A stretch of 61,311 nucleotides of DNA, from assembly GCA_964583975.1 (NCBI GenBank), contig CAZOXU010000011.1, forward strand, positions 1 to 61,311, read 5' to 3'. Numbering within the stretch: position 1 is the stretch's first letter; each line of letters begins with the position of its first letter. The notes under the pieces were generated by a model. It ran no database searches and was not told the DNA's origin. It saw only the letters and a list, made by a program, of their open reading frames with translations. This document shows, one piece after another, positions 1 to 61,311 of this stretch. This stretch comes from an uncultured Planctomycetales bacterium. Its GTDB lineage: Bacteria; Omnitrophota; Gorgyraeia; Zapsychrales; Fredricksoniimonadaceae. A program made the position numbers and the translations under genes.

Positions 1-24
1 CCTTCAACCGCGATTCCACCACAT
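1..24. repeat. Terminal direct repeat, copy 1 (ccttcaaccgcgattccaccacat), identical to 61288..61311
   Basis: The first 24 nt of the window exactly equal the last 24 nt. Confidence 0.95.
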
Positions 25-616
25 ACGCTGTCCCTGCCTCGGCGTTCTCGTAAACCACCGCCTTCTCTGGAACGATCCACACCTTGTTAAAGGTATTCAC
101 TGGTATATTGGTTGTGTTGTACTTACTTTGGGCCTCTTCATAGATTCTCTTCCAAAACTTCTTTCCCACTTCATCTTCTGGATAAATGAGCGAGGCAGTG
201 ATTTGTTTGAGCATGTAGTCTTCTGCCAACAAATCTCGGCCCATCTCCGTTAAACCAAAGCTCTCTGGCACGATACGGTCTTTTTCGTAGGGAGATAGAT
301 TAACCCAGAGATCTCGCTCTGGCACGGTAAGGCTGGCGAGGAAATATTTGATGAGTCGATTGGCTTCATCATGTAGGGGCACAGCATGCTGTGCCCCTAC
401 ATCGCCCTGATCCATAATAAATTCAAATTGAAATGGATTATCCGGATGGACCTTGATGCCTTTCAAGATGGCTGGATTGACAGCGGGGCTGAGACTGACT
501 CGGACACCGGGTGTGGGTAAACGAATTTCCTGGGCCGAGGCAGGCAAAGGCCCAAAGGTATTAATTAAGAAAGCCACAAGGATGGCTATGTGGATTAATG
601 GGGTCGGTTTTCTCAT
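1..616 (-). CDS. 5' part (about 205 codons) of a giant-exoprotein family gene: signal peptide plus conserved N-terminal module; the ORF runs off the window start
   Basis: My own translation from the ATG at 616..614 reads MRKPTPLIHIAILVAFLINTFGPLPASAQEIRLPTPG...LWVNLSPYEKDRIVPE...NTFNKVWIVPEKAVVYENAEAGTAYVVESRLK. There is no stop before position 1. By eye it is clearly homologous to residues ~40-215 of the 33305..38098 protein. It is absent from the supplied ORF track because it has no stop in the window. Confidence 0.8.
   Translation of the reverse strand, partial: MRKPTPLIHIAILVAFLINTFGPLPASAQEIRLPTPGVRVSLSPAVNPAILKGIKVHPDNPFQFEFIMDQGDVGAQHAVPLHDEANRLIKYFLASLTVPERDLWVNLSPYEKDRIVPESFGLTEMGRDLLAEDYMLKQITASLIYPEDEVGKKFWKRIYEEAQSKYNTTNIPVNTFNKVWIVPEKAVVYENAEAGTAYVVESRLK
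373..400. repeat. 28-nt perfect GC-rich palindrome GTAGGGGCACAGCATGCTGTGCCCCTAC inside coding sequence
   Basis: The sequence is its own reverse complement. It shares the GTAGGGGC...GCCCCTAC termini with the 59-nt elements at 60939 and 61188. It encodes VGAQHAVPL in frame in a variable loop of the N-terminal module. Confidence 0.9.
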
Positions 617-6777: not shown

Positions 6778-9204
6778 TTAGAAACCTCGACTGACACTGA
6801 AGTAAAATTTACCGCTTTTTCGTTCGCCATTGGATTGCTTGTTTAATGGAAAACCATAATCAAGATTGATGGGACCAATAGGGGTTTTTACTCTCAATCC
6901 AGGACCAACACCAGTTTTAAGGCCACCACTTCCGTAGTCCTTGGCCTTGGCCCAGACATTTCCAGCATCAAAAAAGACCGCTGCTTTCATGATATCAATG
7001 ACAGGAACAGTATATTCCACTGTGCCTAAAATAGTTGACTCACCACCGATCGAATCCTCGCTAATTGGATCCAAAGGACCTATCTTACGTTCTTCATAAC
7101 CACGTACTGTATCTTGTCCACCAGCGAAATAGCGTTCAAAAATAGGCACGCTACCTTTGTTGCCATAGGCTTTAATCACACCTGTTCGTCCACCAATTTT
7201 GACAGTACTGACATAGTCTTCATTAAATTTAAAAGGAATATAATAACTGGCAGTTGTATTAAAACGATAGAAATTCTTGTCTCCCCCTAATGCTCCTCCA
7301 GCCACATCCGCACTATTGACCCACAATAAACCTGTTGTAGGGTTCAAAGGATTGTCTCTGTAATCATGCGTAAAAGAAATCCCAGTTGAACTGACAACAT
7401 TTTCTCCTTCTTCCGCTCTTAAATCACTGGCAACATTGGAATCCAAATTACCAATTTTGATTTGTTCAAGTTTGTAATAGGTATTGGTAGAGAAATTATC
7501 ATTAAAACTTTTTCCTAATCGAACATCCCCACCTAAGCGTCTTTCATCATAAGCATAACCATTGCTGCTATCCTTAGTAATCTTAGTAAGGAATCCGTCA
7601 AACCCGGCAGACACTGGATAGTCAAACACCCATGGTTCAGTAAAACTTAAAAGGGCTTGTTGTTGCGTTGAACCTAGTTGTCCACGCAGTTTTAAATCTT
7701 GTCCACCACCGGTAAATGAAGGCCAGTTGGCAAAATCAAAATTCTTTTGTTCAACTTCCGCAAAACCAACAACCTTATCTACAGTTGAATATCCGCCACC
7801 AAAGGAAAATGTTCCTGTTTTGGCTTCTTTGACTTGCACAACTAAATCTTTGTGGTCAGCGACATCGGTATCTTCAATATCATAACCAACATCTTCAAAA
7901 TAGCCTAAATTGCGCAGGCGCTCTTTGGATTTACGCAACTGTTTGCCATCAAATTGATCTCCAGGATACATACGCAATTCACGTCGGACGACTAAATCTC
8001 TAGTATGGGTATTGCCTTGGATCTTGATTTGATTGACATAGGCTAAATTGCCTTCTGTAACTGAGATTTTAATATCCACTTTTCCTGATTCTGTGTTGAA
8101 TGAGGTCGCTTCTTCTACAGAAGCGGTAATGTAACCTCGATCAAAATAAGAATTACGGATATTGTTTAAATCATCTTCTAATTTTTCATGGCTAAAAATA
8201 TTACCTGTTTTGATGTGTTTGATGCTGCTTGTTACATCGTATTCTGTAAAGATTGAATTTCCTGAAACAGAAACATTACCTACATAATAACGCTTACCTT
8301 CAACAATAGTGATATTCACATTAACTAAACCATGACTAAGCTCCTCTATCTTATAAGTAGCTTTAGCATCAATAAACCCGTTTTGTTCATAAAATGTTTG
8401 GATGCGGGTCATATCTTCTTGCAAGACATCATCCTTTAAATACGCTTTATTAAACAACCAAGCCCAACGCGACTTAATTGTTTTTATAATCTTCTTATTC
8501 GAATAGGCTGTATTGCCATAAACATAAATATGTCGAATCTTTGTTCTATAGCCTTCACGAATAATAAAATGTAAAGTAGCTTTGTTGGTAACCTCATCAA
8601 TCGATGACTCAACATCCACCTTAACCTGGCTTAATCCTTTTTTGCTGTAGAGTTCTTCAATAGTATTAACGTCTTCTTTGAGGGTTTTATTATCTAAAAA
8701 CTTGTCTTTCTTGGTGTTCATCTTACTCTCAAGGAATTTCTTGTTGTAATAACGTATTTTGGAGAATGTAATCTGATCGACAATTGGTTTTTCTTTCAAT
8801 CTCACAACTACGCGATAACCGCCATCCACATCCTCATGGTCAATTTGAACATCGGAGAAATGTCCTGTATTATATAAGCGTTTAAGATCATCCGAAGCCA
8901 CATTTTCTTGGTATTCCTGGCCAACACGAGTCTTAATCTTTGCTAAAACTTGGGCCACGCCAATCGACTTATTTCCTTGGATATCAATAGATTTAACTAT
9001 TTTGCTCGCAGGTGATACAAGCTCAACAGGTGCTTGATTGGTGGTAGGTTCTTGAAGCGTTAAACCTTGATTTTCTTCACTGGTAACAGAGGAAGATTGA
9101 ACTTCTTGAGAATTTGTCGTAACTATTTGCGCCAAAACATCTTTAATTCCTAAACTAAAACTGCAAGAAAGTATCAAAACGAGAAATAAATGGTTTTTAT
9201 TCAT
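6778..9204 (-). CDS. bamA: Outer-membrane protein assembly factor BamA
   Basis: Signal peptide from the Met at 9204 (MNKNHLFLVLILSCSF), POTRA repeats and a C-terminal beta-barrel ending ...KFYFSVSRGF. The track ORF start (9306) overlaps the end of dnaB. Confidence 0.9.
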   Translation of the reverse strand: MNKNHLFLVLILSCSFSLGIKDVLAQIVTTNSQEVQSSSVTSEENQGLTLQEPTTNQAPVELVSPASKIVKSIDIQGNKSIGVAQVLAKIKTRVGQEYQENVASDDLKRLYNTGHFSDVQIDHEDVDGGYRVVVRLKEKPIVDQITFSKIRYYNKKFLESKMNTKKDKFLDNKTLKEDVNTIEELYSKKGLSQVKVDVESSIDEVTNKATLHFIIREGYRTKIRHIYVYGNTAYSNKKIIKTIKSRWAWLFNKAYLKDDVLQEDMTRIQTFYEQNGFIDAKATYKIEELSHGLVNVNITIVEGKRYYVGNVSVSGNSIFTEYDVTSSIKHIKTGNIFSHEKLEDDLNNIRNSYFDRGYITASVEEATSFNTESGKVDIKISVTEGNLAYVNQIKIQGNTHTRDLVVRRELRMYPGDQFDGKQLRKSKERLRNLGYFEDVGYDIEDTDVADHKDLVVQVKEAKTGTFSFGGGYSTVDKVVGFAEVEQKNFDFANWPSFTGGGQDLKLRGQLGSTQQQALLSFTEPWVFDYPVSAGFDGFLTKITKDSSNGYAYDERRLGGDVRLGKSFNDNFSTNTYYKLEQIKIGNLDSNVASDLRAEEGENVVSSTGISFTHDYRDNPLNPTTGLLWVNSADVAGGALGGDKNFYRFNTTASYYIPFKFNEDYVSTVKIGGRTGVIKAYGNKGSVPIFERYFAGGQDTVRGYEERKIGPLDPISEDSIGGESTILGTVEYTVPVIDIMKAAVFFDAGNVWAKAKDYGSGGLKTGVGPGLRVKTPIGPINLDYGFPLNKQSNGERKSGKFYFSVSRGF

Positions 9205-33304: not shown

Positions 33305-36300
33305 TTATACTTTCGCTAATAACTCTTCCCTACCAGGCACCAAACCTAACAAAGGTCGCATATCAACAATAGGTGTAATATTGAGAATTACTGGACGAAC
33401 GCCAGAAAAATCACCCGCCTGGAACTGCTTAATCATCGCAGGGTCAAAACGGATATCAATCTTCTGACCATCTACATCTATCTTCATATTCTTAGAATTA
33501 AGGTCGATACCACCCTTAGTATCATCATTCTTAGTTGCCATAGCATTATCTGAGAATTTAATTGTTCCACTCGCATTAATCTCTATTTCAACATTGTCTA
33601 AACGGACGGTATCTCCTCTTGTTAATCCATATTTCACTCGAAAAGCTTCAAAGAAATCTTCCAAAGCAATATTTCGACCAGTTTTATTAATAATACTCAC
33701 ATGGTCTCCAATTTGGAAAACTCGAGGATTAATTTGAACACTACTAGGAATAGTATTAGTACCGACCATGGCTGCATCGCTATTAAATTTCCCATCCTTA
33801 ATTAAACCGCTTTGAATTAATTCCTCATCACTTCGCTTCAAAAAAGCTACACCATCATCAATATTTTTTGGCTCCTTCAAATCATGAATATCTTCCCCAG
33901 AGCTTACAAATGCGGCCTTGGTTGATGGCAATTGAGTCACATCCCCTGTTACAGCTTCAAGATAAAAATATCCATCTTTAAACCGCAAATTAAAAGGCAA
34001 TTGATTTTTTAAAATAGTTCTTAATTTATCTACCGCATACACCAGTCTAAAAGCATTGTAGGGCGCACCTTTTTTACCTGCTTCATCTAAAAGTCCAACC
34101 AAGGCAGGACTCGCCTTCACATTGGATGTTTCAATGAGAAAGCTTCTGCCAGTTTTTGTGTTTTTCAAAACATTGCCACCTTTTTGTTTGCTAGGATTAT
34201 TCACCAGCTCTCCGACAACACCATAGCCTCGATCTATTTGGGCCAAAGCAAAGGCAATTTTATCAATACTAACAACACTGTCTTTGGAAAATTTAGTCAG
34301 ATCATTAATGCGGTGACTAGAGATAACCTCAAAATCAGAAAATTCATCAATTAAAGCCCCAGTTATATATTTTCGTTGGCCTTGGCTATCTAAACGAAAT
34401 GCTTGGCCATTTTCTGCTAATTGCATGAAATTATGGCCATGTCCATAAGGCACAGTAGGGCTATTAGGATCAAATTCTAAAACTCCATTGTTGAATTTAA
34501 ATCCATGAAAAGTTGGTTGAACAACAAAGAATATATTGGCAGGAGAAAATCCATAGAAGTTATTTCTGATGAAATCCTCTAAAACGTCTTTTTCGATATC
34601 AGCATTCACATTTACAATTATTTTTTGTTGAGTCAAAACTTCCTGAATATTTCTTTTATTGTCTTTAGCGAGCTGCTCTATGGCCAAACGATAAGCCAAA
34701 ATTTGTCGAGGCCCCATTCCTAGGCGAAGTTTGGCATCTGTAGCGCTAGCCTTACCTAATTCTTGAGCTAATTCCCAAATGTCTAAACCATACATCGGAC
34801 CTCTCTTCAATCGAGTAGCAGCACCAGCAAAAATAAATTGTGGAATATAAGCTCCATTTAACAAAGTATTCTTTGCATGCTGTTGAAATTCTGCTGCTTG
34901 ATCAGAACTCAAAAAGCTAGATAAACTAACAACATCATCAGCAAGTTTTAAATCATCAGCTTTGGATTGAGCATATATATTTGATCCATCGACAATTTTA
35001 TTAATCTCCCCATCTAAACGTTTAACCTCATCTACATTATTGGTAGTCACAGCTTGATAATAGGCATCCAATAGCGGCTGAATACTTGCTTTAACCGATA
35101 TTACTTTATCAGACAAAGCTTTTTCTAAGCTTGCAATAGGTTTTCCAACCATAGCTCTATCTAAATTCCTTACGCGAAGAAAATCCCCAATATTAGTACC
35201 TCCTTCAGATTGCCATTGATAAAAATCTCCTAAAAGGGTATTTGCATTCAAATCATCTCTCTCTGCTATTTCAGTGATTCTTTCCCTAACATTTTGAGAA
35301 ACTTCCTCGATTGATTTTGGCCGGCCACTTGCTTTAGCTTCAACCGTTCTTTCTTGAACAAAGGCTTGAAGATTATTATTTCCTGTAGATTGTATGGCAC
35401 GAAATACTTCTAAAAGCTTTCCTCGTTGAAGACCTGCCCCTTCTGCTTGCTGCCATATTCCTTCCATTTCCAAATCTTTCATTTCACTAGCTGGTTGCAG
35501 TATTTTATTTCTCACAGTAGTAATTTTAGCCAAAACAAAACTCCTTAAATCAGCCGCACCCGCCATAGATTGTCTTCTTTGAAATTCTAAAAGTAAACGG
35601 CCTCGGCTTAACCCCACATTTTCTGCCTGTTGCCAAATATCTTCGGTAACAGAAGTATTCGGCACATCACCACCATCAATATCTCCTTCATTTAATAATC
35701 GACTAGCAACAGCAGCAGCGACTGCTGCACCAACAGCGGAAGCATTCTCAACCTTTACAATCTCTACATCTTCTGGAGTAAAACCTTCTAATTTTAAAGC
35801 TTCCTCAAATCCTTGTTTCACTAATTCATTCTTCCAATAGACGCTGCCATCAATCACAATTTTCTTTTTTCCAGAAACTGTCACATTTTTTAAAACCTGA
35901 GCAATGGCTGAACCTAATAGAAGTCCAGATCTCTTAAGTAAAGTCTGGCTAATATTCTGCATTTCAAATGCTTCAGCTTCTGAAACAGAGATATCCTCTC
36001 CTAAATACTCCTTAATCAAACTAATTAATTCCAACTTGTCATTGGCAATAGCTAGCTTACCTAATAATACGCTCTCTAAATCATCCCATTTTGAACTTTG
36101 TGCAATTTGGAGGTAATTCCCTTCTTTCGCAGACTTGGCAAGATTTCTAATATTCTCACGCAAAAGCTGAACTAGATATTTTCCTGAAATCATCTTCTCA
36201 AACATTTGTTTTCCCTGAGGCTCTGAATCTCTCAAAACGACTTCATCGCTTTCAGTTCGTAAACTTTCGGGAATATTATTGGTCGAACCTGCCTCTAAAT

Positions 36301-38098
36301 TAATGATATTGCCCTGCGCATCTGTGATTGAAAAATTAGAACCTGTCCCTAAAATGATTCCACTGACAGCTCCAGGAGAAGCTAATTGAGTGGCAATCGT
36401 ATCGTTTAAGACGCCAACAACCTCTAATTTTCTATTATTAAGAGCTGTTTCTAACAATGCTCCTGGATTTTTATTTTGAATATCTTGAAGTTCCCAACCT
36501 TTAGCGAGACGTAAAACTGTTGCACCTCCCATAGATTGATGTGACATAGGAAAAGCAAAAGACAAACCAATCTTATAATCTTTCGATGTTTCTAAAGGTA
36601 ATTCCTTAATTTTGGAAGCCACAAAACTAAAAACATCTGCACTAGTTCTCATTTTTAACTCTTCAGGGAATTTTGCGTCTATTTGTTGAATGGTCGTAGG
36701 TTTTTGACCTGGCTGCATCCTTACTAAAACAATCTTTAAATTTGTTCCACTAAAATCAACTCCAATATAATCTCCAGATTCTCTTCCATTCGCAGGTTTA
36801 AAATATGAATTTAAATAACTCACCCCACCCACACCGCTTTTGCCATTTAATGTTGTTATTAAATTTTCCGCAAAAACATTAGACACTCTTCTAATCGATT
36901 CCGTATCCAACTCAAAACTACTTCTCATAGCTAAATCTGTTTTAGATTTCGGAGTCGTGACTCTTATATTAAAAAGACGTCCTTTTGCAGGATTTACGAT
37001 AAATCTAGCTGCATCGTTATCCCTAGGATTACTCGTTTGAGCTAGATCTAATTTTCCAAGCACCCCACCAGAGAAATATTTTCTTGGGATTACCTGTCCA
37101 TTTTGTACGTCTTCCTTAATATAGTTAAATACACCCTTCTTATACGCCTTTAAGTATTCCTTATAAATCTTCTCCTTAATGGTCTTATCTGCAGTGTCCA
37201 CCCCATTAACCTTAGCTTTATTGCTGTAAACTTGATTAAGCAACGCATCTTTAAGATTTTTCTTATACCAAGCTGCTAAAATCATCGAGTGAAAAATTTG
37301 ACGGAGATTAGCAAAATTCTTTCCCGTATTAACTTCTTTTTCCAGCTCAGGAAGAACGATATCGCGAACGATCTGGGATCCTAAATTATTGGTATCTTGG
37401 GCAACCTGATTCACGGTTTGTTTCTGCGAGGCCAAATAATCTTCTTCCAACATCACCTTCAAATGGCTTGCCACAACGAATGCTGTGTTATCATGCACAA
37501 AAACTTTAGCCTTATCAGCCACAATCCATACCTTATTAAATGTATTTACTGGAATCTCAGTTGATCCATAGAGTGCCTGAGCTTTAGCGTAAACCTTGTT
37601 CCAAAACGCCTTGCCTAATTCTTTCTCGGGATAGATCAATGATGCTGTTAATTGCTTGAGGATATAGTCTTGGGCCAGCATGTCACGTCCCATATCGGTC
37701 TGTCCTAATTCATTAGGAATAATGCGGTCTTTTTCATAAGGTGAAAGGTTAACCCATAAATTTTCTTCGGGAATGGTTAACGAAGCTAAAAAATATTTGA
37801 TGAGCTTTTCAGATTCTGTTTTTAATTGCTCTTGACCGTTGGACAAACCTGAATTTCCTGTATCCACAATAAAATCAAATAAGATGGGGTTCTCTGGATG
37901 AACGCGCAAGCCCTTAACCATCATAGGCACATAATTCTCGGTTAAACTGATCATGGTACCTGGTATGGGAAGACCCAATTCTGCGGGAGATTGAGCTAGA
38001 GCTCGAACTGGAGAAAGAAAGCTAACAATAAAACATACATTAATAACAATTGTTAAACAACGAAAAGCAAACGATTCTTTTTGTCGAGGATTCAACAT
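33305..38098 (-). CDS. Giant modular exoprotein 1 (1,597 aa): signal peptide, shared N-module, hexokinase domain, 3x repeat, UDP-sugar pyrophosphorylase-like domain, small module, shared C-module
   Basis: Uninterrupted 4.8-kb ORF. Its N- and C-terminal modules are homologous to the 54890..61311 ORF. Domain motifs are listed in the sub-features and findings. Confidence 0.88.
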   Translation of the reverse strand: MLNPRQKESFAFRCLTIVINVCFIVSFLSPVRALAQSPAELGLPIPGTMISLTENYVPMMVKGLRVHPENPILFDFIVDTGNSGLSNGQEQLKTESEKLIKYFLASLTIPEENLWVNLSPYEKDRIIPNELGQTDMGRDMLAQDYILKQLTASLIYPEKELGKAFWNKVYAKAQALYGSTEIPVNTFNKVWIVADKAKVFVHDNTAFVVASHLKVMLEEDYLASQKQTVNQVAQDTNNLGSQIVRDIVLPELEKEVNTGKNFANLRQIFHSMILAAWYKKNLKDALLNQVYSNKAKVNGVDTADKTIKEKIYKEYLKAYKKGVFNYIKEDVQNGQVIPRKYFSGGVLGKLDLAQTSNPRDNDAARFIVNPAKGRLFNIRVTTPKSKTDLAMRSSFELDTESIRRVSNVFAENLITTLNGKSGVGGVSYLNSYFKPANGRESGDYIGVDFSGTNLKIVLVRMQPGQKPTTIQQIDAKFPEELKMRTSADVFSFVASKIKELPLETSKDYKIGLSFAFPMSHQSMGGATVLRLAKGWELQDIQNKNPGALLETALNNRKLEVVGVLNDTIATQLASPGAVSGIILGTGSNFSITDAQGNIINLEAGSTNNIPESLRTESDEVVLRDSEPQGKQMFEKMISGKYLVQLLRENIRNLAKSAKEGNYLQIAQSSKWDDLESVLLGKLAIANDKLELISLIKEYLGEDISVSEAEAFEMQNISQTLLKRSGLLLGSAIAQVLKNVTVSGKKKIVIDGSVYWKNELVKQGFEEALKLEGFTPEDVEIVKVENASAVGAAVAAAVASRLLNEGDIDGGDVPNTSVTEDIWQQAENVGLSRGRLLLEFQRRQSMAGAADLRSFVLAKITTVRNKILQPASEMKDLEMEGIWQQAEGAGLQRGKLLEVFRAIQSTGNNNLQAFVQERTVEAKASGRPKSIEEVSQNVRERITEIAERDDLNANTLLGDFYQWQSEGGTNIGDFLRVRNLDRAMVGKPIASLEKALSDKVISVKASIQPLLDAYYQAVTTNNVDEVKRLDGEINKIVDGSNIYAQSKADDLKLADDVVSLSSFLSSDQAAEFQQHAKNTLLNGAYIPQFIFAGAATRLKRGPMYGLDIWELAQELGKASATDAKLRLGMGPRQILAYRLAIEQLAKDNKRNIQEVLTQQKIIVNVNADIEKDVLEDFIRNNFYGFSPANIFFVVQPTFHGFKFNNGVLEFDPNSPTVPYGHGHNFMQLAENGQAFRLDSQGQRKYITGALIDEFSDFEVISSHRINDLTKFSKDSVVSIDKIAFALAQIDRGYGVVGELVNNPSKQKGGNVLKNTKTGRSFLIETSNVKASPALVGLLDEAGKKGAPYNAFRLVYAVDKLRTILKNQLPFNLRFKDGYFYLEAVTGDVTQLPSTKAAFVSSGEDIHDLKEPKNIDDGVAFLKRSDEELIQSGLIKDGKFNSDAAMVGTNTIPSSVQINPRVFQIGDHVSIINKTGRNIALEDFFEAFRVKYGLTRGDTVRLDNVEIEINASGTIKFSDNAMATKNDDTKGGIDLNSKNMKIDVDGQKIDIRFDPAMIKQFQAGDFSGVRPVILNITPIVDMRPLLGLVPGREELLAKV
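33899..34921 (-). other. UDPGP/UAP-like nucleotide-sugar pyrophosphorylase domain within giant protein 1
   Basis: FAGAATRLKRGPMYG (compare AGGQGTRLG), VPYGHGHNF (compare P-x-G-x-G) and NPSKQKGGNVL (the K-GG region). Residues ~1060-1400. Confidence 0.55.
35699..36901 (-). other. Hexokinase-family (actin-fold sugar kinase) domain within giant protein 1
   Basis: Ordered motifs IGVDFSGTNLKIVLV, GLSFAFP, LAKGW, VLNDTIAT, ILGTGSN, NLEAGS, QMFEKMISGKYL, IDGSVY and ASAVGAAVAAAVA (residues ~400-800). Confidence 0.85.
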
Positions 38099-54889: not shown

Positions 54890-57800
54890 TTATGATGCCG
54901 CTGCCAGCTGGGTGACTGGTGTCTGGGTACTGATCCCTAAAAACTTCCTGAGATCAGTCATGGGCTGGATATTGATAATCACGGGATAAAAACCTGGGGC
55001 GTTTTGCAGTTGGGCAAGCTGTGCTGGGTCTAAATTAAACTTTATACCTCCATTAGCATTTTGGGTTTGTAGAAATTTGTCAGAGGTAAGGTCAATACCA
55101 CCTTTTTTGATCATTGCGCTATCTCTGACTAATGAACCTTTCTTAAATAAACTTGAAGCATTAGTCATAGCCGCATCTTCTGCCTTAGACATATCTAAAA
55201 TCTTCGGAAGGATTTCAACACCCAAAGACAATATTCCTGACAGATGCGCGCTAGGCGATCCTGGAATACCTTTTCCTTGAAAATAACTCGGCGGCTTTCC
55301 TAAAGAGCCGAAAAGTCTCTGACTATCTTCGGCAGGCGTCAACTCATCATCTACGACAGTGGCAAGCAAAACATTCTGACCATCCTTGGATGGCACTGCA
55401 GAAGCCAATTGATCCAAGTTTAAATCTCTCATAACTGAATCGACATCTTCTGGAACGAGCCCTTTTTGACGGAATAATTCTTGAATACCCGCATATCGAT
55501 CTCCCTGACTCCAAAGAAGGTGAGAATAATTAACGATAGGGACTATTGTGAAAAGATTTCGCACTAATGGATCTATCAGGTAGGTGCTTGTTGCCACACT
55601 ACCCGTAATGCTTTGCCCTGTTACAGATATTCTAGAGGGATCTATTTCTGGACGATCAGCAAGCCATCGTACAGAAACCAAGGTATCGGCAATCGATTGC
55701 ATAATAAAAGTTTTAAACTTTTCTGCATCAAAATCCAAAGCCACATATCGTTGTACAGAATTCATTCCTTGTGTTCCAGCAGCTGAACGTTTAGCGTATA
55801 AAGGCATTCCTACTTCCAATACCGCAACGCCTTTGCTAGCTAAATAAATAGAAATAAGACGGGCCAGCGTATCTTGTTCATAAAAACTACACAAAACGAC
55901 TCCGGGTAAAAGTTTTCCATCAGTTGTTTTAGGAAGGAAATATCTCGCATAAACATGTTCTGAATTAGGAAAGGCGGATTTATTAAAGGCAGATCGATAG
56001 GTTAGTTCTTGAATAGAAAACGGCTGAGCTTCAGGTGGAGATGTCTTTAATCTTTCTACCATTTGAAGCAGATCAGCAAGCAAAGGAGAATTTTTCATCA
56101 ATTTCTTTAACTGACCGAGAATATAATTAAGAGCTGCATCATCAGTTAAGGCCAAAATTTCTTCTTGTGTCAATGAGCGCAATTGATAATCAACGGTGTT
56201 AATATTTCCCTGAGGATCTCGATCTATCTTTAAATTCGTATCAGTTGGAAGAAATGCGATGTTCTGAGATAGATTTAAACCTGTTAGTTGAGATAATTCT
56301 TCTACAACATCTCTACCTTGTGCCATCGCAGCATCTTGCTTAGGATCGCTCTCCGCTTCCCAATTACCTTTAAAATCTGGAACGACTTCAAAATCATAAT
56401 CAAAAATGTCAAAAGTAATGGTTGATTCAATTAATACCGGTACTGGAAACTCTCCTTCGCGAGAGGGCGCCAACCATTGTAAATCAAAATTTCCAAGAAC
56501 ATCTTGGTCTAAATGAATACCCACCTTATTCAAACGTGCGACAAGAAGTTGAAAATCATGCCGAATGAGTTCATAAACATACGTTTGAAATTCTTCCCAT
56601 CTATTAGGATCTATTCCATAGGCCGCTAAGACATCACGATACCTTTCATCTTCTTTCAACAAGTCATAAGCTTGTTCACGTCCAGAATTATTGGAAAAGA
56701 ACGAAGAACTACCGATACGGGTACTCTGAATCCAGGATGGAGATCTAGAAAAATCTGGATCAGGTTCAAACTTACCGGTTTTTAAATTTCCTCGAAATAA
56801 AAAACGACTTTCGTAAGATTTTCCGTCTAATTTAAAAGCGTTAAAAACAGATTCCATTCCTCCAGAATCATAAATTCTTTCATTCAAAACAACTAATTTC
56901 CATAAACCATCTAAAATCTCAACGGCATCGGTTGTTGAGGTATCTAATGTAAAATGCATACTGTTTAAATCTGGGTCTCTATAAGGAGTAATTTTGTAGT
57001 TATCAAAATACTTAATGACTTTCTCTTGATAAGGATCTTGAAATGAAGGTGAATTGGTATAAGAAAATGTGATGGTCAGATTAGAATCTTTTCCTTTATG
57101 AATATAAAAAATTCCTCTTCCATAGGAACCCGTGTTGGGTTTGAAAATAACTGGCAAAGAAATCTCACCAGACACAATTTGTTGGGCTACTTCTCTAAAA
57201 TTAGCGACATCTCTTGGGTCTGTTAAAGCTTGTAAATAGGATTCGTCTGAAAAACGCATTTCGTCTAATTCTTGAATCACATCAGAATCTCTTTTAAAAG
57301 CAACAAACCAATCGGGCTGACGAACCTTACCGCCCTTAAGTAATTCCCTCATCCCCCACTTACTAGCCAAAAGTCGCTGTATATCAAGAATACTAACCTT
57401 GGCGCTTTGCATTGCTGCATCAACTTTGTAAACTTCTCGCTTCATAGAATCATAAAAAACCGGCTCAGCATTACTCAACTTCTTCCTTCTCCAATTGATG
57501 ATTCCCACTTGAGGGTCAACCATAGATTGGACACCTAGATTAACCATAAGGGCACTCGCTTGAATGCTATGGACAAAAGCTACAACGATGATCTTCCTTC
57601 CTCCATTAAATTTCTTTCTTAATTTCATCCTAGCTTTAAAATCATCCAATCCTTTCTTAGTTCGAATCAGAAGATTTAAATAACTTTCCGAAGGAGAATG
57701 ACCTGAAATACTAGGTAATGTTGCAGTCGCATCCATGCCTCTATTAAAACGATATAAGAACTCTCGCACACCTCTTCCTTCTTTTTGAATATCTGCTACC

Positions 57801-60800
57801 CCTTTTTCATCGAGCAATCCCAAGGATATCTCATCTAAAAAGCTTTCCACATTTGGTTCAATCTTATGCCCTGTTTTATCTTTAACTAGATCCAGAAAAT
57901 CTTGGGCAGTTTGTTGAGTACGATCTTTGGAACTAGTTATAACAACCACATCTGCATTAGATTCAATGTCAGGCCTTAGTTTAGAAAACAAAATCTTTGC
58001 CCCCGCTAGTGACTGTTCCTTACCTTTTAGAGTTAATAAATTTCTTCTTCCTGGAATTAAAATACCTGCATTAGAGTATGTTTGCCCATGTCTTTCCCAA
58101 TAAAAACTAAAATCATCTTGCGAAATTGAAACAAGAGGATCTATTCCATTGAATTTAATTTGACCAGATCCATTAACTAAAACCTTCTCATCTAACTCTT
58201 TTAAGGGTTTCCATTCCGATGGTCTGAGTAAATAAAATCGTGAGATTCCTTTAAAATTTCTCAATACCACCTCTCCTAATTTAATTTCATTAGGATTAAT
58301 TTTCGCAAATCGAATACGCAGCACCGCACCGTCTTCATCTCGCAAAACATCCCTTCTGTCTAAAAGACTCACCTCCGCTTCAGGATGAATTTTCTGAGCA
58401 TAAGAACGCATACTTAATAGACCTTCACCTTTTCCTCCAATTCTGTGATTACCAGCTAACTTTTGAGCTAATTTCTCTTCAGTAGTTTCAGCCTCTTTGA
58501 TAGATAATCCATTGTTTACTACATCAATATTTACAAAACCATCTTTTTCATAAACATAAAAATCAATTTTTAAACTTTTGTTGTCTGGTATTTTACCAAT
58601 GTCTATTCCATGTATAAAAGCATCCGCAGAATTTTCTATGGCATGAATAAATATAGATTCTAACAAAGAAACCACAAGTCTTTGATGACCGTCTTTATGG
58701 ACGACCAGCATTTTCTGGGATCCAAAATCTGAACTCTGATTTCCTAAAATAGAGGCAATTTTGTGATCCATAGGAAGGACGATTTCTTCTAATCTTCCCC
58801 ATACTCTTTGTAGTCCTTCTTTTTTAGAAAGGCTGGTTAATATTGGGAAATCTTCTTTAGAAAATTCGATCGTTCCTAAAGAAAATAACTTTTCCGCCTC
58901 CATCGCTGCATCTTTTGTGGTCGATCTTAATAAGGATTCCAAATCTTGTCTTACGCTCTTATCTTTAGGATCAAGCTCTATTGCTTTTCGAAAGGCCGCT
59001 TCTGCCCTCTTAAAATCATGTAACTTGGTTAGCACGCGTCCAAGACTTTTATAGGCATTTGTATACCGGGGGCTCTCTTCTATTGCTTTTAAATAAGCCT
59101 CCTCCGCTCCTTCTAAGTCACCTTTATTTTCCAATAAAAATCCTAAATTGTAACGTAGCCAAGAATTTCTTGAATCAAGCTTTATGCCTGTTCGAAAAGA
59201 CGCTTCAGCTCGTGCTAAATCACCCTTCTTCATCAATAGAAGTCCAAGATTGTTATAAGCGATTTGGTATTTAGGATTTATCTTTAATGCTGTTAAATAT
59301 GCTGTTTCAGCTCCTGTTAAATCACCTTTACTGTCTAACAAATCCCCTAAAGAAACGTATGCACTCATATCTTTAGGATCAAGCTCTATTTCTTTATGAT
59401 GCGCAGCCTCTGCTCCTGCCAAGTCTCCTTTATGCATCAGAAAAATTCCTAAATTCTGATAAAAACTTCCAATTATTCCTAATTGCCACGGTAAAATCCT
59501 AACAACCTGCAAATCATTCTTTCCTTTAAAATCAAATGTTAAACCTTCATTAGAGATATCTTTTTCGATTGGCAATTTCACAATAAAACTAAAATCTAAT
59601 TCTCCCGAAGGCCTCAACTCCTCAGAAGGTTCTGCGATATAGTATCGTCCATCAGATAACCTAACTAATATAAAGACATGATCTATTTCTGAAACCAGGT
59701 AAACCTTCTTAATTCCAATTGCATCCAAGTACAATGCCATTAAAGCACTTCTGCCGACACAATTAATTTCCTTAGTAAGTCGTATCCGAATTGGAGAGGC
59801 TTCATTTAAAGCAGAATAATCTTTATCTGTCCACCCGTGCATTTTGATAATTAACCGCATAATTTTATTGATGGCTTGGATTTCAAGCTCTGCACCAGCT
59901 AAAGGCGATCTCTCTCTTGCCTTTTGTATTTCTGCCTTTAATTGCTCTGTATCAATCTGATCAAAACGCTTAGCTTTCCTTTGAAACCCAAACGACTCTA
60001 ATGAAGAGAGCTTTGGTGACTCATTCTTAGATCTTGCTAAATCTTCTTTTAATAAATGCATCCCTCTTAAATAAGTTTGATTTTCTATATCAATCTGGAC
60101 ATGGCGTACGGTCAATTGAATGGCTTTGGTCATAAGAGTCTGCAGCTCATCAAGTTTCTGTGAATCTTTTAACCCAAGCCATTCTTTAATCTCTCTTTCT
60201 TGCTCCAAATCTAGGGGCTTTTGATTTGAAGAAACATGATCCACATGAAATCCATCCGGGATTTTCAAGTCACTATTGTCTTGAGCCAAAATGTATCCTA
60301 AAGCATCAAATAGACCAATAACCTGTTCATGTTCTTGAGTTTTTTGATTCTCATATCTCTGAGCCAAATACCTTGCAGCGTCTCTAAACTTTCCAGAAAT
60401 TCTAGGCAAGGTTCGTTCCTTATCGCTCAAAGGAAGATCCCTAATCTTTTGTGTTAATTCTATAGTTTCTTTAACGTTTATGTCTTCTGGCAACTTGAAA
60501 TGATAAAAAATTTCCCCATTGGTATTCGCAAGCTTTTCAGGTACTAGAAAATCAACCGCTTCTTGACCTCGCGGAACAAATTGCACAACAATATGATCTG
60601 TTAATGGCAGCCAGGCGTATTGATCCTTCTGTCCTTTCTGCGAGCCCGCAAAACGCTTGCGTTCTTGCTCAGTTTCCCATACTGGTTTACTTAAAACTTG
60701 ATCAAGTTTAACTTCTATTCTCATTTTCCCTGCAAGACTAGTCATGGCCGAATCACCAATCACAGATGGGTCTTGACTAATTCTCATAGCTTGAGAAGGT

Positions 60801-61311
60801 TGCAACAACATTCCTCCAGAGAAATATTTGCGAGGCACAGGCTGCTGGGTTATAGGATCAGGCTCTTCTTTGATGTAGTTGTACACGCCTTTTTTGAATG
60901 CTTGGAGGTACCGTTGATAAATTGATTCAACATCCTCGGTAGGGGCAGGCCCCTGTGCCTGCCCGGCTTGAGGGCGACCACGGGGGGTCGCCCCTACGAT
61001 TTTATTCTTATCCGTATACACCCGAGCCAGGATGCTGTCCTTTATTTTCTTCTTGTACCACGTAGCTAGGATTAAAGAATTGTAAACTTGTCTAAGTTGG
61101 GCGAAGTTTTGTCCTTCATTGACTTCGCGGGTGAGTTCGGGGATGACGATTTCACGGATGATGTTATTTCCCAATATATTGGTATCCGTAGGGGCAGGCC
61201 CCTGTGCCTGCCCTTCTTGAGGGCGACCACGGGGGGTCGCCCCTACACCGTTTTTGGATTCCGATAAATAATCTGCCTCTAGCATCACCTTCAACCGCGA
61301 TTCCACCACAT
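54890..61311 (-). CDS. Giant modular exoprotein 2 (>2,139 aa, 5' end off the window edge and apparently continued at 616..1): shared N-module, unknown region, transglutaminase-like Cys protease, TPR, GHKL ATPase-like, histidine phosphatase, ATP-grasp-like, alpha/beta hydrolase-like, shared C-module
   Basis: Uninterrupted 6.4-kb ORF open at the window end. The first codon in the track is an edge GTG, not a real start. Its N- and C-terminal modules are homologous to the 33305..38098 protein. Confidence 0.88.
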   Translation of the reverse strand, partial: VVESRLKVMLEADYLSESKNGVGATPRGRPQEGQAQGPAPTDTNILGNNIIREIVIPELTREVNEGQNFAQLRQVYNSLILATWYKKKIKDSILARVYTDKNKIVGATPRGRPQAGQAQGPAPTEDVESIYQRYLQAFKKGVYNYIKEEPDPITQQPVPRKYFSGGMLLQPSQAMRISQDPSVIGDSAMTSLAGKMRIEVKLDQVLSKPVWETEQERKRFAGSQKGQKDQYAWLPLTDHIVVQFVPRGQEAVDFLVPEKLANTNGEIFYHFKLPEDINVKETIELTQKIRDLPLSDKERTLPRISGKFRDAARYLAQRYENQKTQEHEQVIGLFDALGYILAQDNSDLKIPDGFHVDHVSSNQKPLDLEQEREIKEWLGLKDSQKLDELQTLMTKAIQLTVRHVQIDIENQTYLRGMHLLKEDLARSKNESPKLSSLESFGFQRKAKRFDQIDTEQLKAEIQKARERSPLAGAELEIQAINKIMRLIIKMHGWTDKDYSALNEASPIRIRLTKEINCVGRSALMALYLDAIGIKKVYLVSEIDHVFILVRLSDGRYYIAEPSEELRPSGELDFSFIVKLPIEKDISNEGLTFDFKGKNDLQVVRILPWQLGIIGSFYQNLGIFLMHKGDLAGAEAAHHKEIELDPKDMSAYVSLGDLLDSKGDLTGAETAYLTALKINPKYQIAYNNLGLLLMKKGDLARAEASFRTGIKLDSRNSWLRYNLGFLLENKGDLEGAEEAYLKAIEESPRYTNAYKSLGRVLTKLHDFKRAEAAFRKAIELDPKDKSVRQDLESLLRSTTKDAAMEAEKLFSLGTIEFSKEDFPILTSLSKKEGLQRVWGRLEEIVLPMDHKIASILGNQSSDFGSQKMLVVHKDGHQRLVVSLLESIFIHAIENSADAFIHGIDIGKIPDNKSLKIDFYVYEKDGFVNIDVVNNGLSIKEAETTEEKLAQKLAGNHRIGGKGEGLLSMRSYAQKIHPEAEVSLLDRRDVLRDEDGAVLRIRFAKINPNEIKLGEVVLRNFKGISRFYLLRPSEWKPLKELDEKVLVNGSGQIKFNGIDPLVSISQDDFSFYWERHGQTYSNAGILIPGRRNLLTLKGKEQSLAGAKILFSKLRPDIESNADVVVITSSKDRTQQTAQDFLDLVKDKTGHKIEPNVESFLDEISLGLLDEKGVADIQKEGRGVREFLYRFNRGMDATATLPSISGHSPSESYLNLLIRTKKGLDDFKARMKLRKKFNGGRKIIVVAFVHSIQASALMVNLGVQSMVDPQVGIINWRRKKLSNAEPVFYDSMKREVYKVDAAMQSAKVSILDIQRLLASKWGMRELLKGGKVRQPDWFVAFKRDSDVIQELDEMRFSDESYLQALTDPRDVANFREVAQQIVSGEISLPVIFKPNTGSYGRGIFYIHKGKDSNLTITFSYTNSPSFQDPYQEKVIKYFDNYKITPYRDPDLNSMHFTLDTSTTDAVEILDGLWKLVVLNERIYDSGGMESVFNAFKLDGKSYESRFLFRGNLKTGKFEPDPDFSRSPSWIQSTRIGSSSFFSNNSGREQAYDLLKEDERYRDVLAAYGIDPNRWEEFQTYVYELIRHDFQLLVARLNKVGIHLDQDVLGNFDLQWLAPSREGEFPVPVLIESTITFDIFDYDFEVVPDFKGNWEAESDPKQDAAMAQGRDVVEELSQLTGLNLSQNIAFLPTDTNLKIDRDPQGNINTVDYQLRSLTQEEILALTDDAALNYILGQLKKLMKNSPLLADLLQMVERLKTSPPEAQPFSIQELTYRSAFNKSAFPNSEHVYARYFLPKTTDGKLLPGVVLCSFYEQDTLARLISIYLASKGVAVLEVGMPLYAKRSAAGTQGMNSVQRYVALDFDAEKFKTFIMQSIADTLVSVRWLADRPEIDPSRISVTGQSITGSVATSTYLIDPLVRNLFTIVPIVNYSHLLWSQGDRYAGIQELFRQKGLVPEDVDSVMRDLNLDQLASAVPSKDGQNVLLATVVDDELTPAEDSQRLFGSLGKPPSYFQGKGIPGSPSAHLSGILSLGVEILPKILDMSKAEDAAMTNASSLFKKGSLVRDSAMIKKGGIDLTSDKFLQTQNANGGIKFNLDPAQLAQLQNAPGFYPVIINIQPMTDLRKFLGISTQTPVTQLAAAS
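55310..55942 (-). other. Alpha/beta-hydrolase-like domain in giant protein 2
   Basis: LLPGVVLCSFYEQ..., the IDPSRISVTGQSITGSVA nucleophile-elbow-like segment, and the later VVDDELTP. Confidence 0.42.
56390..57172 (-). other. ATP-grasp-like domain in giant protein 2
   Basis: LPVIFKPNTGSYGRGIFYI (K-P-x-x-G-S-x-G-x-GI) followed by a ~250-aa alpha/beta region. Weak, motif-level only. Confidence 0.4.
57515..58117 (-). other. Histidine phosphatase (phosphoglycerate-mutase-like) domain in giant protein 2
   Basis: The FYWERHGQTYSN RHG motif, with a downstream IVVAFVHSIQASAL second-His region. Confidence 0.5.
58385..58657 (-). other. GHKL (HATPase_c-like) ATP-binding domain in giant protein 2
   Basis: N-box-like IHAIENSADA, G1-like VVNNGLSI and G2-like GGKGEGLLSM, in the canonical order. 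Confidence 0.45.
58940..59482 (-). other. Five to six tandem TPR repeats in giant protein 2
   Basis: Recurrent 34-aa units: GDLAGAEAAHHKEIELDPKD, GDLTGAETAYLTALKINPKY, GDLARAEASFRTGIKLDSRN, GDLEGAEEAYLKAIEESPRY, HDFKRAEAAFRKAIELDPKD. Confidence 0.85.
59636..59830 (-). other. Transglutaminase-like / papain-fold cysteine protease core in giant protein 2
   Basis: INCVGRSALMALYLDAIGI (Cys517) ... IDHVFILVRLSDGRYYIAEP (His544, then an acidic residue). This is the typical C-H-D/E spacing of transglutaminase-like domains. Confidence 0.5.
60939..60997. repeat. 59-nt GC-rich double-hairpin element, copy A, in frame in giant gene 2
   Basis: GTAGGGGCAGGCCCCTGTGCCTGCCCGGCTTGAGGGCGACCACGGGGGGTCGCCCCTAC. 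Stems GGGCAGGC/GCCTGCCC and GGGCGACC/GGTCGCCC, with terminal inverted repeats GTAGGGG/CCCCTAC. It encodes VGATPRGRPQAGQAQGPAPT. Confidence 0.92.
61188..61246. repeat. 59-nt GC-rich double-hairpin element, copy B, in frame in giant gene 2
   Basis: Identical to copy A except for 2 nt in the linker (CCCTTCTTGAGG versus CCCGGCTTGAGG). It encodes VGATPRGRPQEGQAQGPAPT. Confidence 0.92.
61288..61311. repeat. Terminal direct repeat, copy 2, identical to 1..24
   Basis: The last 24 nt of the window exactly equal the first 24 nt. Confidence 0.95.

Follow-up and report, generated by a model that had tools for sequence, protein, structure and literature searches.

Host Gene and Element Copies

We analyzed a 61,311-nt stretch of DNA from an uncultured Omnitrophota bacterium (contig CAZOXU010000011.1; the window in what follows), in which a 59-nt, G+C-rich palindromic element occurs twice inside one very large gene, referred to here as giant 2 (Table 1). 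The product of giant 2 comprises an N-terminal domain, tetratricopeptide (TPR) repeats, a His-phosphatase, an esterase-like domain, and a C-terminal module. The first and the last of these are shared with a hexokinase-containing paralogue in the window (giant 1; 33305–38098, minus strand). Both copies of the element lie inside the open frame of giant 2. An earlier reading of this DNA from its letters alone (the sequence-only reading) had predicted that they are translated in frame as VGATPRGRPQ(A/E)GQAQGPAPT, and we could confirm this translation.

Table 1. Coordinates of the host genes, element copies, and palindromes in the window
Feature	Positions	Strand	Description
Host gene giant 2	54890..61309	-	frame open over 2139 codons; N-terminus beyond the window edge
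REP heterodimer copy 1, 59 nt	60939..60997	-	read as VGATPRGRPQAGQAQGPAPT; giant 2, N-terminal domain, loop 2
REP unit A of copy 1	60939..60964	+	GTAG head, 8-bp stem GGGCAGGC, loop CCCTGT
REP unit B of copy 1, inverted	60972..60997	-	GTAG head, 8-bp stem GGGCGACC, loop CCCCGT
REP heterodimer copy 2, 59 nt	61188..61246	-	read as VGATPRGRPQEGQAQGPAPT; giant 2, N-terminal domain, loop 1
REP unit A of copy 2	61188..61213	+	
REP unit B of copy 2	61221..61246	-	
Third GTAG palindrome, perfect 28-nt "double-foot" REP GTAGGGGCACAGCATGCTGTGCCCCTAC	373..400	-	read as VGAQHAVPLH in loop 0 of a paralogous N-terminal domain
Third paralogue, N-terminal 205 codons	2..616	-	signal-peptide-like start and conserved domain; runs off the window start; hosts the 28-nt palindrome

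A BLASTP alignment of giant 2 with giant 1, with 46% identity in the region of the copies, is interrupted precisely at the two element sites by gaps of 14 and 12 residues, in agreement with the earlier claim that the sites are loops that are 12–14 residues longer than in giant 1. Both sites also correspond to variable loops in an alignment of homologues. In an AlphaFold model of the domain fragment, which is poor (mean pLDDT 54) and was used solely to place the inserts, they form the two lowest-confidence coil segments between predicted helices. The peptide encoded by the element was found in 0 of 120 homologues of the host N-terminal domain.

Structure of the Element

Sequence comparison confirmed the positions first reported for the two copies and the 2-nt difference between them. 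The only mismatches are two adjacent spacer positions (GG at 60965–60966 in copy 1, TT at 61214–61215 in copy 2). Each half-element was searched in the 61-kb window with up to 3 mismatches allowed, using 100 dinucleotide-preserving shuffles as control. Either half has exactly two exact matches, where the shuffles predict 0. The inverted repeats at the ends of the element do exist, but measure 8 nt (GTAGGGGC/GCCCCTAC) rather than the 7 nt originally given. The two predicted 8-bp G+C stems were found as described, with the sequences GGGCAGGC/GCCTGCCC and GGGCGACC/GGTCGCCC.

These stems belong to two units of 26 nt that differ in sequence: unit A (GTAG-GGGCAGGC-CCCTGT-GCCTGCCC) and, on the other strand, unit B (GTAG-GGGCGACC-CCCCGT-GGTCGCCC). 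Each unit consists of the tetranucleotide GTAG, a perfect 8-bp stem with three G–C pairs at its foot (GGG/CCC), and a 6-nt loop. The units are joined tail to tail, with their heads pointing outward and a 7-nt spacer in between. The GTAG head abuts the 8-bp stem in 4/4 units and likewise in a 28-nt palindrome at 373–400. By direct count the element has a G+C content of 73–76%, compared with 34–44% for the window and about 36–40% for the host gene, so that it does stand out as a GC-rich insert in an AT-rich gene. Three of its six reading frames are free of stop codons.

At minimum energy, the element is predicted to form one extended, imperfect hairpin (-37 to -43 kcal/mol, z -3.2 to -5.1). The double-hairpin form in which the element was first described is feasible, but at -34.6 to -35.2 kcal/mol it is slightly less stable than this optimum. 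The element is flanked on the left and right by CCTCG and GATTT in copy 1 and by TATCC and ACCGT in copy 2. No direct repeat was seen at the junctions of either window copy, and therefore there is no target-site duplication.

This anatomy is that of repetitive extragenic palindromes (REPs) of the GTAG type, which are defined as small G+C-rich palindromes of 20–40 nt with GT[AG]G directly at the foot of the stem-loop (PMC3733652, PMC6006769). Both 26-nt units have this size and this head. A pair of inverted REPs with a short spacer that folds into one long hairpin, and that recurs as a pair, is known as a REPIN (REP doublet forming hairpin; Bertels & Rainey 2011, PMC3116915). The dimer in the window is likewise an inverted pair with a single long hairpin as its predicted fold, and as a doublet it recurs on 17 metagenome contigs (see below). 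We interpret each copy as a REPIN-like heterodimer of GTAG REPs, of the type associated with subclass 2.4 of the REP-associated tyrosine transposases (RAYT or TnpAREP), that is carried in frame by giant 2. We assign this interpretation a probability of about 0.8.

Distribution of the Element

The element is a dispersed repeat that occurs in intergenic DNA and in frame within unrelated genes. A degenerate 26-mer pattern covering both units was searched in bacterial genomes, with one genome per species, and returned at least 120 loci. The matches listed carry host labels that include Binatia, Chloroflexota, Planctomycetota, Desulfobacterota, Myxococcota, Acidobacteriota, Gammaproteobacteria, Cyanobacteria, Omnitrophota, and others. 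They comprise singlets and convergent dimers, the latter mostly of two different stems. The exact dimer, with the spacer left free, is present on 17 metagenome contigs of the Joint Genome Institute (JGI). These contigs have G+C contents of 43–63% and unrelated flanks, and the spacers of the doublet vary from 6 to 9 nt. The sequence-only reading had compared the element with REPs and with miniature inverted-repeat transposable elements (MITEs), and this view of it as a palindromic repeat is borne out by units in many phyla and by dimers in unrelated surroundings. An Rfam search gave chance-level matches only, all far below gathering scores.

Intergenic copies of the dimer were found upstream of an RpiB-like gene (L129) and in L136. 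In-frame copies reside in a DUF1156 methylase-like gene on three related contigs (L122, L131, and L132), in an HsdS-like gene with the Pfam domain Methylase_S (L134), where the dimer is read in another frame, and in a 317-codon frame without a Pfam match. The spacer core CTTGA is common to both window copies and occurs in 0/17 of the other dimers. Because this core is private to the two copies, they are each other's closest relatives, which supports the proposal of a recent spread or gene conversion between them.

The same dimer is also present in loop 1 of a divergent homologue of the same Omnitrophota domain (L137). The element of this homologue is 58 nt long and the insert again amounts to 20 codons. 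Its arms are 100% identical to those in the window, while the coding DNA on either side has diverged much further; the mean identity of 76% for L137 refers to the whole alignment, identical arms included. The sequence-only reading had named, as the outcome that would speak against insertion, a segment that orthologues carry at normal divergence and that has no further copies. Neither part of this outcome was observed.

These data also bear on the idea that the two segments are an ancestral Gly/Pro-rich linker that was duplicated within the gene and never was mobile. Their location in naturally variable loops and the intact frame would suit a linker, yet we consider such an origin extremely unlikely. 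The homologues without the peptide argue against it, as do the identical arms of L137 within far more divergent flanks, the presence of identical DNA within unrelated genes, between genes, and in the RAYT genes of other phyla, and the difference in G+C content between element and gene.

At six metagenome loci (L123, L124, L125, L127, L130, and L133; for example L124 2610–2745) the dimer forms the center of an extended palindrome, GGTAATGGTTCAATTTGATTCAACAACATTTCTAT[dimer]AAAATTTTATCAAACTGAACCACTACC. Sequences outside this palindrome are unrelated, which indicates a composite, MITE-like repeat around the REP dimer.

This arrangement, together with the 8-nt terminal inverted repeats, the small size, and the dispersal of the element, would be compatible with a classical MITE, that is, with a deletion derivative of an insertion sequence that encoded a DDE transposase and left terminal inverted repeats and a target-site duplication. 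Such duplications are missing: direct repeats are absent from the window copies and from 13 other independent junctions, where no target consensus is visible either. Furthermore, what look like terminal repeats are the GTAG heads of a pair of REP units, each of which folds on its own and also occurs singly, and the associated protein that we found is a Y1/HuH RAYT instead of a DDE transposase. Descent from a DDE-type insertion sequence is therefore very improbable.

Association with RAYT Genes

Using tblastn over all fetched loci we detected RAYT-like open reading frames (ORFs) in four of the listed loci (L031, L051, L082, and L119). In these ORFs a REP unit follows in frame directly after the HuH strand, according to the pattern ...MPNHVHGIIVI-VGATPRGCP...GQARGPAPT...LGDVVHRFK. 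The full-length ORF in L082 (6369–7061) matches the NCBIfam model REP_Tyr_transpos ("REP-associated tyrosine transposase", E = 6.9e-14) and also Pfam Y1_Tnp. Its motifs NHFH, WQ, and YIVENP are close to the signature of subclass 2.4 (PMC6006769). The family of this protein has 2840 members at E <= 1e-10, and a phmmer search of the ORF against PDB sequences gave no match. Among the 118 best RAYT matches with a HuH motif (within P0121–P0240), 96 contain VGA and an APT-like motif after the HuH, and several RAYT homologues carry the peptide type of the window itself.

Since 96/118 RAYT homologues contain the cassette in frame, REPs of this type appear to be translated routinely as part of their own transposase, and this may pre-adapt them to survival inside other genes. 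The VGA...APT cassette in giant 2 is of the same type and in the same frame as that of most RAYT genes of this class, which suggests the same. If true, this pre-adaptation to translation would help explain why subclass 2.4 REPs occur inside genes more than those of other classes.

The RAYT ORF in L051 also contains seven tandem copies of a 21-nt half-REP (7700–7880), read as GQARGPEN ×7. Here, REP-derived sequence has expanded in frame inside the loop of the transposase. A Pfam search with this truncated, repeat-filled protein gave a Cornifin match that we rejected as spurious and due to low complexity.

Proposed Origin of the Copies in Giant 2

On this interpretation the element is a non-autonomous REPIN-like repeat of the type that accompanies, and often resides inside, RAYT/TnpAREP (HuH/Y1) genes of subclass 2.4 (group 4 of Bertels). 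A RAYT encoded elsewhere in the genome may have moved it as single-stranded DNA, a mode of transfer that would leave no target-site duplication. Copies in coding DNA could persist only where a surface loop tolerates them and where they are read in a frame without stops, of which there are three. Such copies would be read through as a 20-residue segment rich in Gly, Pro, Ala, and Arg, and the protein would not be destroyed. As the spacer is private to the two copies in giant 2, one of them probably arose from the other, in either direction, by local transposition or gene conversion. The cassette peptide is expected to have no function of its own, and a hairpin of 35–43 kcal/mol may affect mRNA or replication incidentally.

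Several observations weigh against this interpretation. Classical REPs are mostly extragenic, and all three GTAG sites in the window (the two dimers and the palindrome at 373–400) are inside ORFs and within one domain family. Since intragenic REPs are a documented minority, their position does not exclude membership of the GTAG type. We found no RAYT gene in the 61-kb window, and the published case for RAYT-driven mobility of REP dimers is for the most part inferential. In source-like metagenomes, word depth over the element is 17–25x that over unique flank, a value that is confounded by other organisms and by paralogues. An empty-site allele was sought in eight public runs and none was found. 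The joints that do occur in these eight runs skip 108–198 nt; they come from paralogues that have diverged and do not represent clean excisions.

A further point concerns the event itself. A length of 59 nt is not divisible by 3, and with a cassette of 20 residues the loops are longer by only 12–14. Judged by these lengths, part of the native loop is missing, and a simple cut-and-insert event without extra steps does not account for the present sequence. The present state looks like the replacement of a loop segment by the element and is probably best described as such. The original proposal of an insertion is supported insofar as a foreign, dispersed element is located in the loops, with the refinement that a loop segment seems to have been replaced.

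Relation to Known Palindromic Repeats

Opitutus terrae is a member of the Planctomycetes–Verrucomicrobia–Chlamydiae (PVC) group, to which the Omnitrophota are usually assigned as well. GTAG REPs inside ORFs were described by Di Nocera, De Gregorio & Rocco in 2013, who found intra-ORF REP dimers to be commonest in O. terrae (PMC3733652). Such dimers encode 20–30 residues, sometimes twice per ORF, are commonly heterodimers, and were proposed to sit in linkers or loops of the encoded proteins (PMC3733652). In the published repeats a G+C stem of 6–9 bp carries GTAG at its foot. The element in giant 2 resembles them by this head, by its heterodimeric structure, and by the presence of dimers within ORFs. 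In contrast to the published cases, the host is an uncultured Omnitrophota bacterium and the window copies are all intragenic and confined to one domain family.

The element also agrees with the REPs of TnpAREP subclass 2.4, which corresponds to RAYT group 4 of Bertels (Quentin et al. 2018, PMC6006769; Bertels et al. 2017). REPs of this subclass are long and canonical, have three G–C pairs at the stem foot, and are distributed in a patchy manner over many phyla; "double-foot" REPs of this subclass begin with GTAG and finish with CTAC, and REPs are inserted in frame in the tnpAREP gene itself (PMC6006769). The window element fits this description point by point: the stem foot contains three G–C pairs, the palindrome at 373–400 is a double-foot REP, and in-frame REPs occur in RAYT ORFs, namely those of the four loci and the 96 homologues described above. 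The difference is that the transposase is absent from the window, so that the link to this genome is made through the type of element only.

A REPIN-RAYT system further includes a cognate RAYT, a Y1/HuH transposase with a Y...NP motif, which the same genome encodes and which usually has REPs on its flanks. The classical REPINs of Pseudomonas and enterobacteria belong to other RAYT groups than the one considered here. According to the REPIN literature they are extragenic, vertically inherited, and accompanied by a single-copy RAYT.

The sequence-only reading had compared the behavior of the element with that of Rickettsia palindromic elements (RPEs). This comparison is apt, because we also observe a palindromic repeat that is tolerated in frame in the loops of an otherwise conserved protein and would be translated with it. 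Among the RPEs, RPE-4 and RPE-6 have been equated with REPs of the CGTC type (PMC3733652). The head is thus CGTC there and GTAG here, the sequences would differ, RPE-1 is longer, and RPEs are restricted to Rickettsia, whereas the present host is an Omnitrophota bacterium. As described, head and host set the two apart, and the resemblance would be one of analogous behavior rather than of family membership. In summary of these comparisons, the element is not a MITE defined by terminal inverted repeats and target-site duplication, and it is probably not a member of the families RPE-1 to RPE-8 of Rickettsia.

REP dimers carried in frame are already published (PMC3733652, PMC6006769), and the case presented here adds to a known behavior. 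It extends the list of such cases by the Omnitrophota lineage and its very large secreted multi-domain proteins; two published accounts of large genes in Omnitrophota do not mention palindromic repeats. Foreign segments of 20 residues can also mislead alignments and annotation.

Other Palindromes in the Same Loops

An explicit scan of the window for perfect hairpins headed by GT[AG]G returned three sites only, and all three of them (3/3 in 61 kb) are within about 2.3 kb that encode one N-terminal domain family. The third site is the 28-nt palindrome in the third paralogue (Table 1). The loop that carries it measures 18 residues, as compared with the typical 17. Because this length is near the usual one, the palindrome has replaced native residues instead of being added to them.

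Loops of unusual length are found in other homologues of the domain. The segment between the anchors of loop 2 measures 19 residues in 56 of 76 readable homologues and at least 22 in 19/76, with peptides such as VIPAKAGIQ, VGVGSKPTQERAGLEPAPT, VILSATKDL..., and VSLRAT...IASSLRS in the long ones. Loop 1 is long in 30 of 62 homologues. Many of the long loops carry peptides that are typical of different palindromes, mostly as judged at the peptide level. At the level of DNA, loops were checked in three homologues (L121 6270–6640, L139 2730–2801, and L140 10019–10282). In L139 the codon junction used by window copy 2 is occupied by another GTAG REP heterodimer. Hairpins of the form GTCATTCCCGCG(A/C)AAGCGGGAAT (GTCATTCCCGC hairpins) were found in L121 and L140, and L121 also contains an element of about 100 nt with 13-nt terminal inverted repeats.

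Overall, peptides of at least six palindromic repeat families occur in the same two or three loops of other Omnitrophota homologues (P0001–P0120). Different families are often found at the same codon junction, which on the left side reads K-[HN]-x followed by V....

The concentration of palindrome families at the same junctions of one domain is the one aspect of this system that is possibly out of the ordinary, although unproven. It raises the question as to whether the loops are specific landing or exchange sites, to which several families are directed or in which they replace one another in a cassette-like manner, perhaps as selected surface-loop variation. The clustering of all three GTAG sites in the window, the frequent long loops with peptides of different palindromes, the other elements confirmed in the DNA of L139, L121, and L140, the shared left junction, the replacement of residues in the third paralogue, and the same dimer in the same loop of L137 despite far more divergent flanks would all be in line with this idea. 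We nevertheless regard it as unlikely. In a large, fast-evolving paralogous family with flexible loops, neutral retention would have many opportunities, and selection acting as a filter could give the same picture. No target consensus is visible at the 13 independent junctions, the same dimer also occurs in unrelated genes and in intergenic DNA, and the evidence for other families is mostly at the peptide level. Moreover, long versions of loop 1 are never followed by the right flank NQLGSQ (0/30, as compared with 16/32 of the others; Fisher p = 3e-6, a test that ignores phylogeny). This pattern suggests a single subfamily whose loop was occupied long ago and has since changed occupants, and not many independent gains. 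A stronger version, in which REP dimers and at least five other palindrome families repeatedly swap at the same junctions of three loops and serve as interchangeable cassettes that diversify secreted multi-domain proteins, appears similarly doubtful. That several palindrome families cluster in these loops would matter more broadly only if the cause is targeting and not tolerance.

Assembly Support, Contig Ends, and Neighboring Genes

Public assemblies from independent studies (X1, X2, and X3) contain the element in the context described here. One contig of X3 spans the whole of copy 2 and both of its flanks. Copy 1 is reached from its left flank by contigs of X1 and X2, which end within its spacer, and a second X1 contig starts at 60971 inside the element and crosses the right flank to 61076. 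Both junctions of copy 1 are thereby seen, although the whole copy is spanned by no single contig.

The first 24 nt of the window (1–24) are identical to the last 24 nt (61288–61311; CCTTCAACCGCGATTCCACCACAT). These terminal repeats encode the conserved motif VVESRLK in the N-terminal domains of two paralogous large genes, and the contigs from public runs at this overlap are too short to span it. The contig is probably bounded by a repeat that the paralogues share, and not circular. The genes in the window are of chromosomal type and include LpxC/FabZ, BamA, DnaB, a GlmU-like gene, and a SurA-like gene, which speaks for a chromosomal fragment. The fragment at 2–616 may be either the missing N-terminus of the gene at 54890–61309 or a separate paralogue. 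For metagenomics this means that such repeats interrupt assemblies where large paralogous genes have their N-termini, as illustrated by the present contig, which starts and ends in the same 24-nt stretch.

The identical ends, together with the end of the contig 65 nt beyond copy 2 and the breaking of short-word assemblies at the element, might indicate that a repeat from the metagenome was wrongly threaded into giant 2. We give next to no credence to this possibility, because runs X1, X2, and X3 of independent studies show the element in this context and because the frame is kept through both copies and 2139 codons beyond.

The stretch is present in wastewater, activated-sludge, and freshwater metagenomes; a search of public RNA runs for it returned none that contain it. 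The named homologues of the N-terminal region belong almost entirely to Candidatus Omnitrophota or Omnitrophica.

The N-terminal domain common to giants 1 and 2 comprises about 350 residues with a signal-peptide-like start, and the common C-terminal module about 70 residues (GGIDL...). The enzyme domains between these parts differ, with a hexokinase in the product of 33305–38098 and TPR repeats, a His-phosphatase, and an esterase in that of 54890–61309. From this layout, the common parts look like a shared delivery or anchoring scaffold for varied cargo. D[AS]AM motifs recur between the unrelated enzyme domains in both giants.

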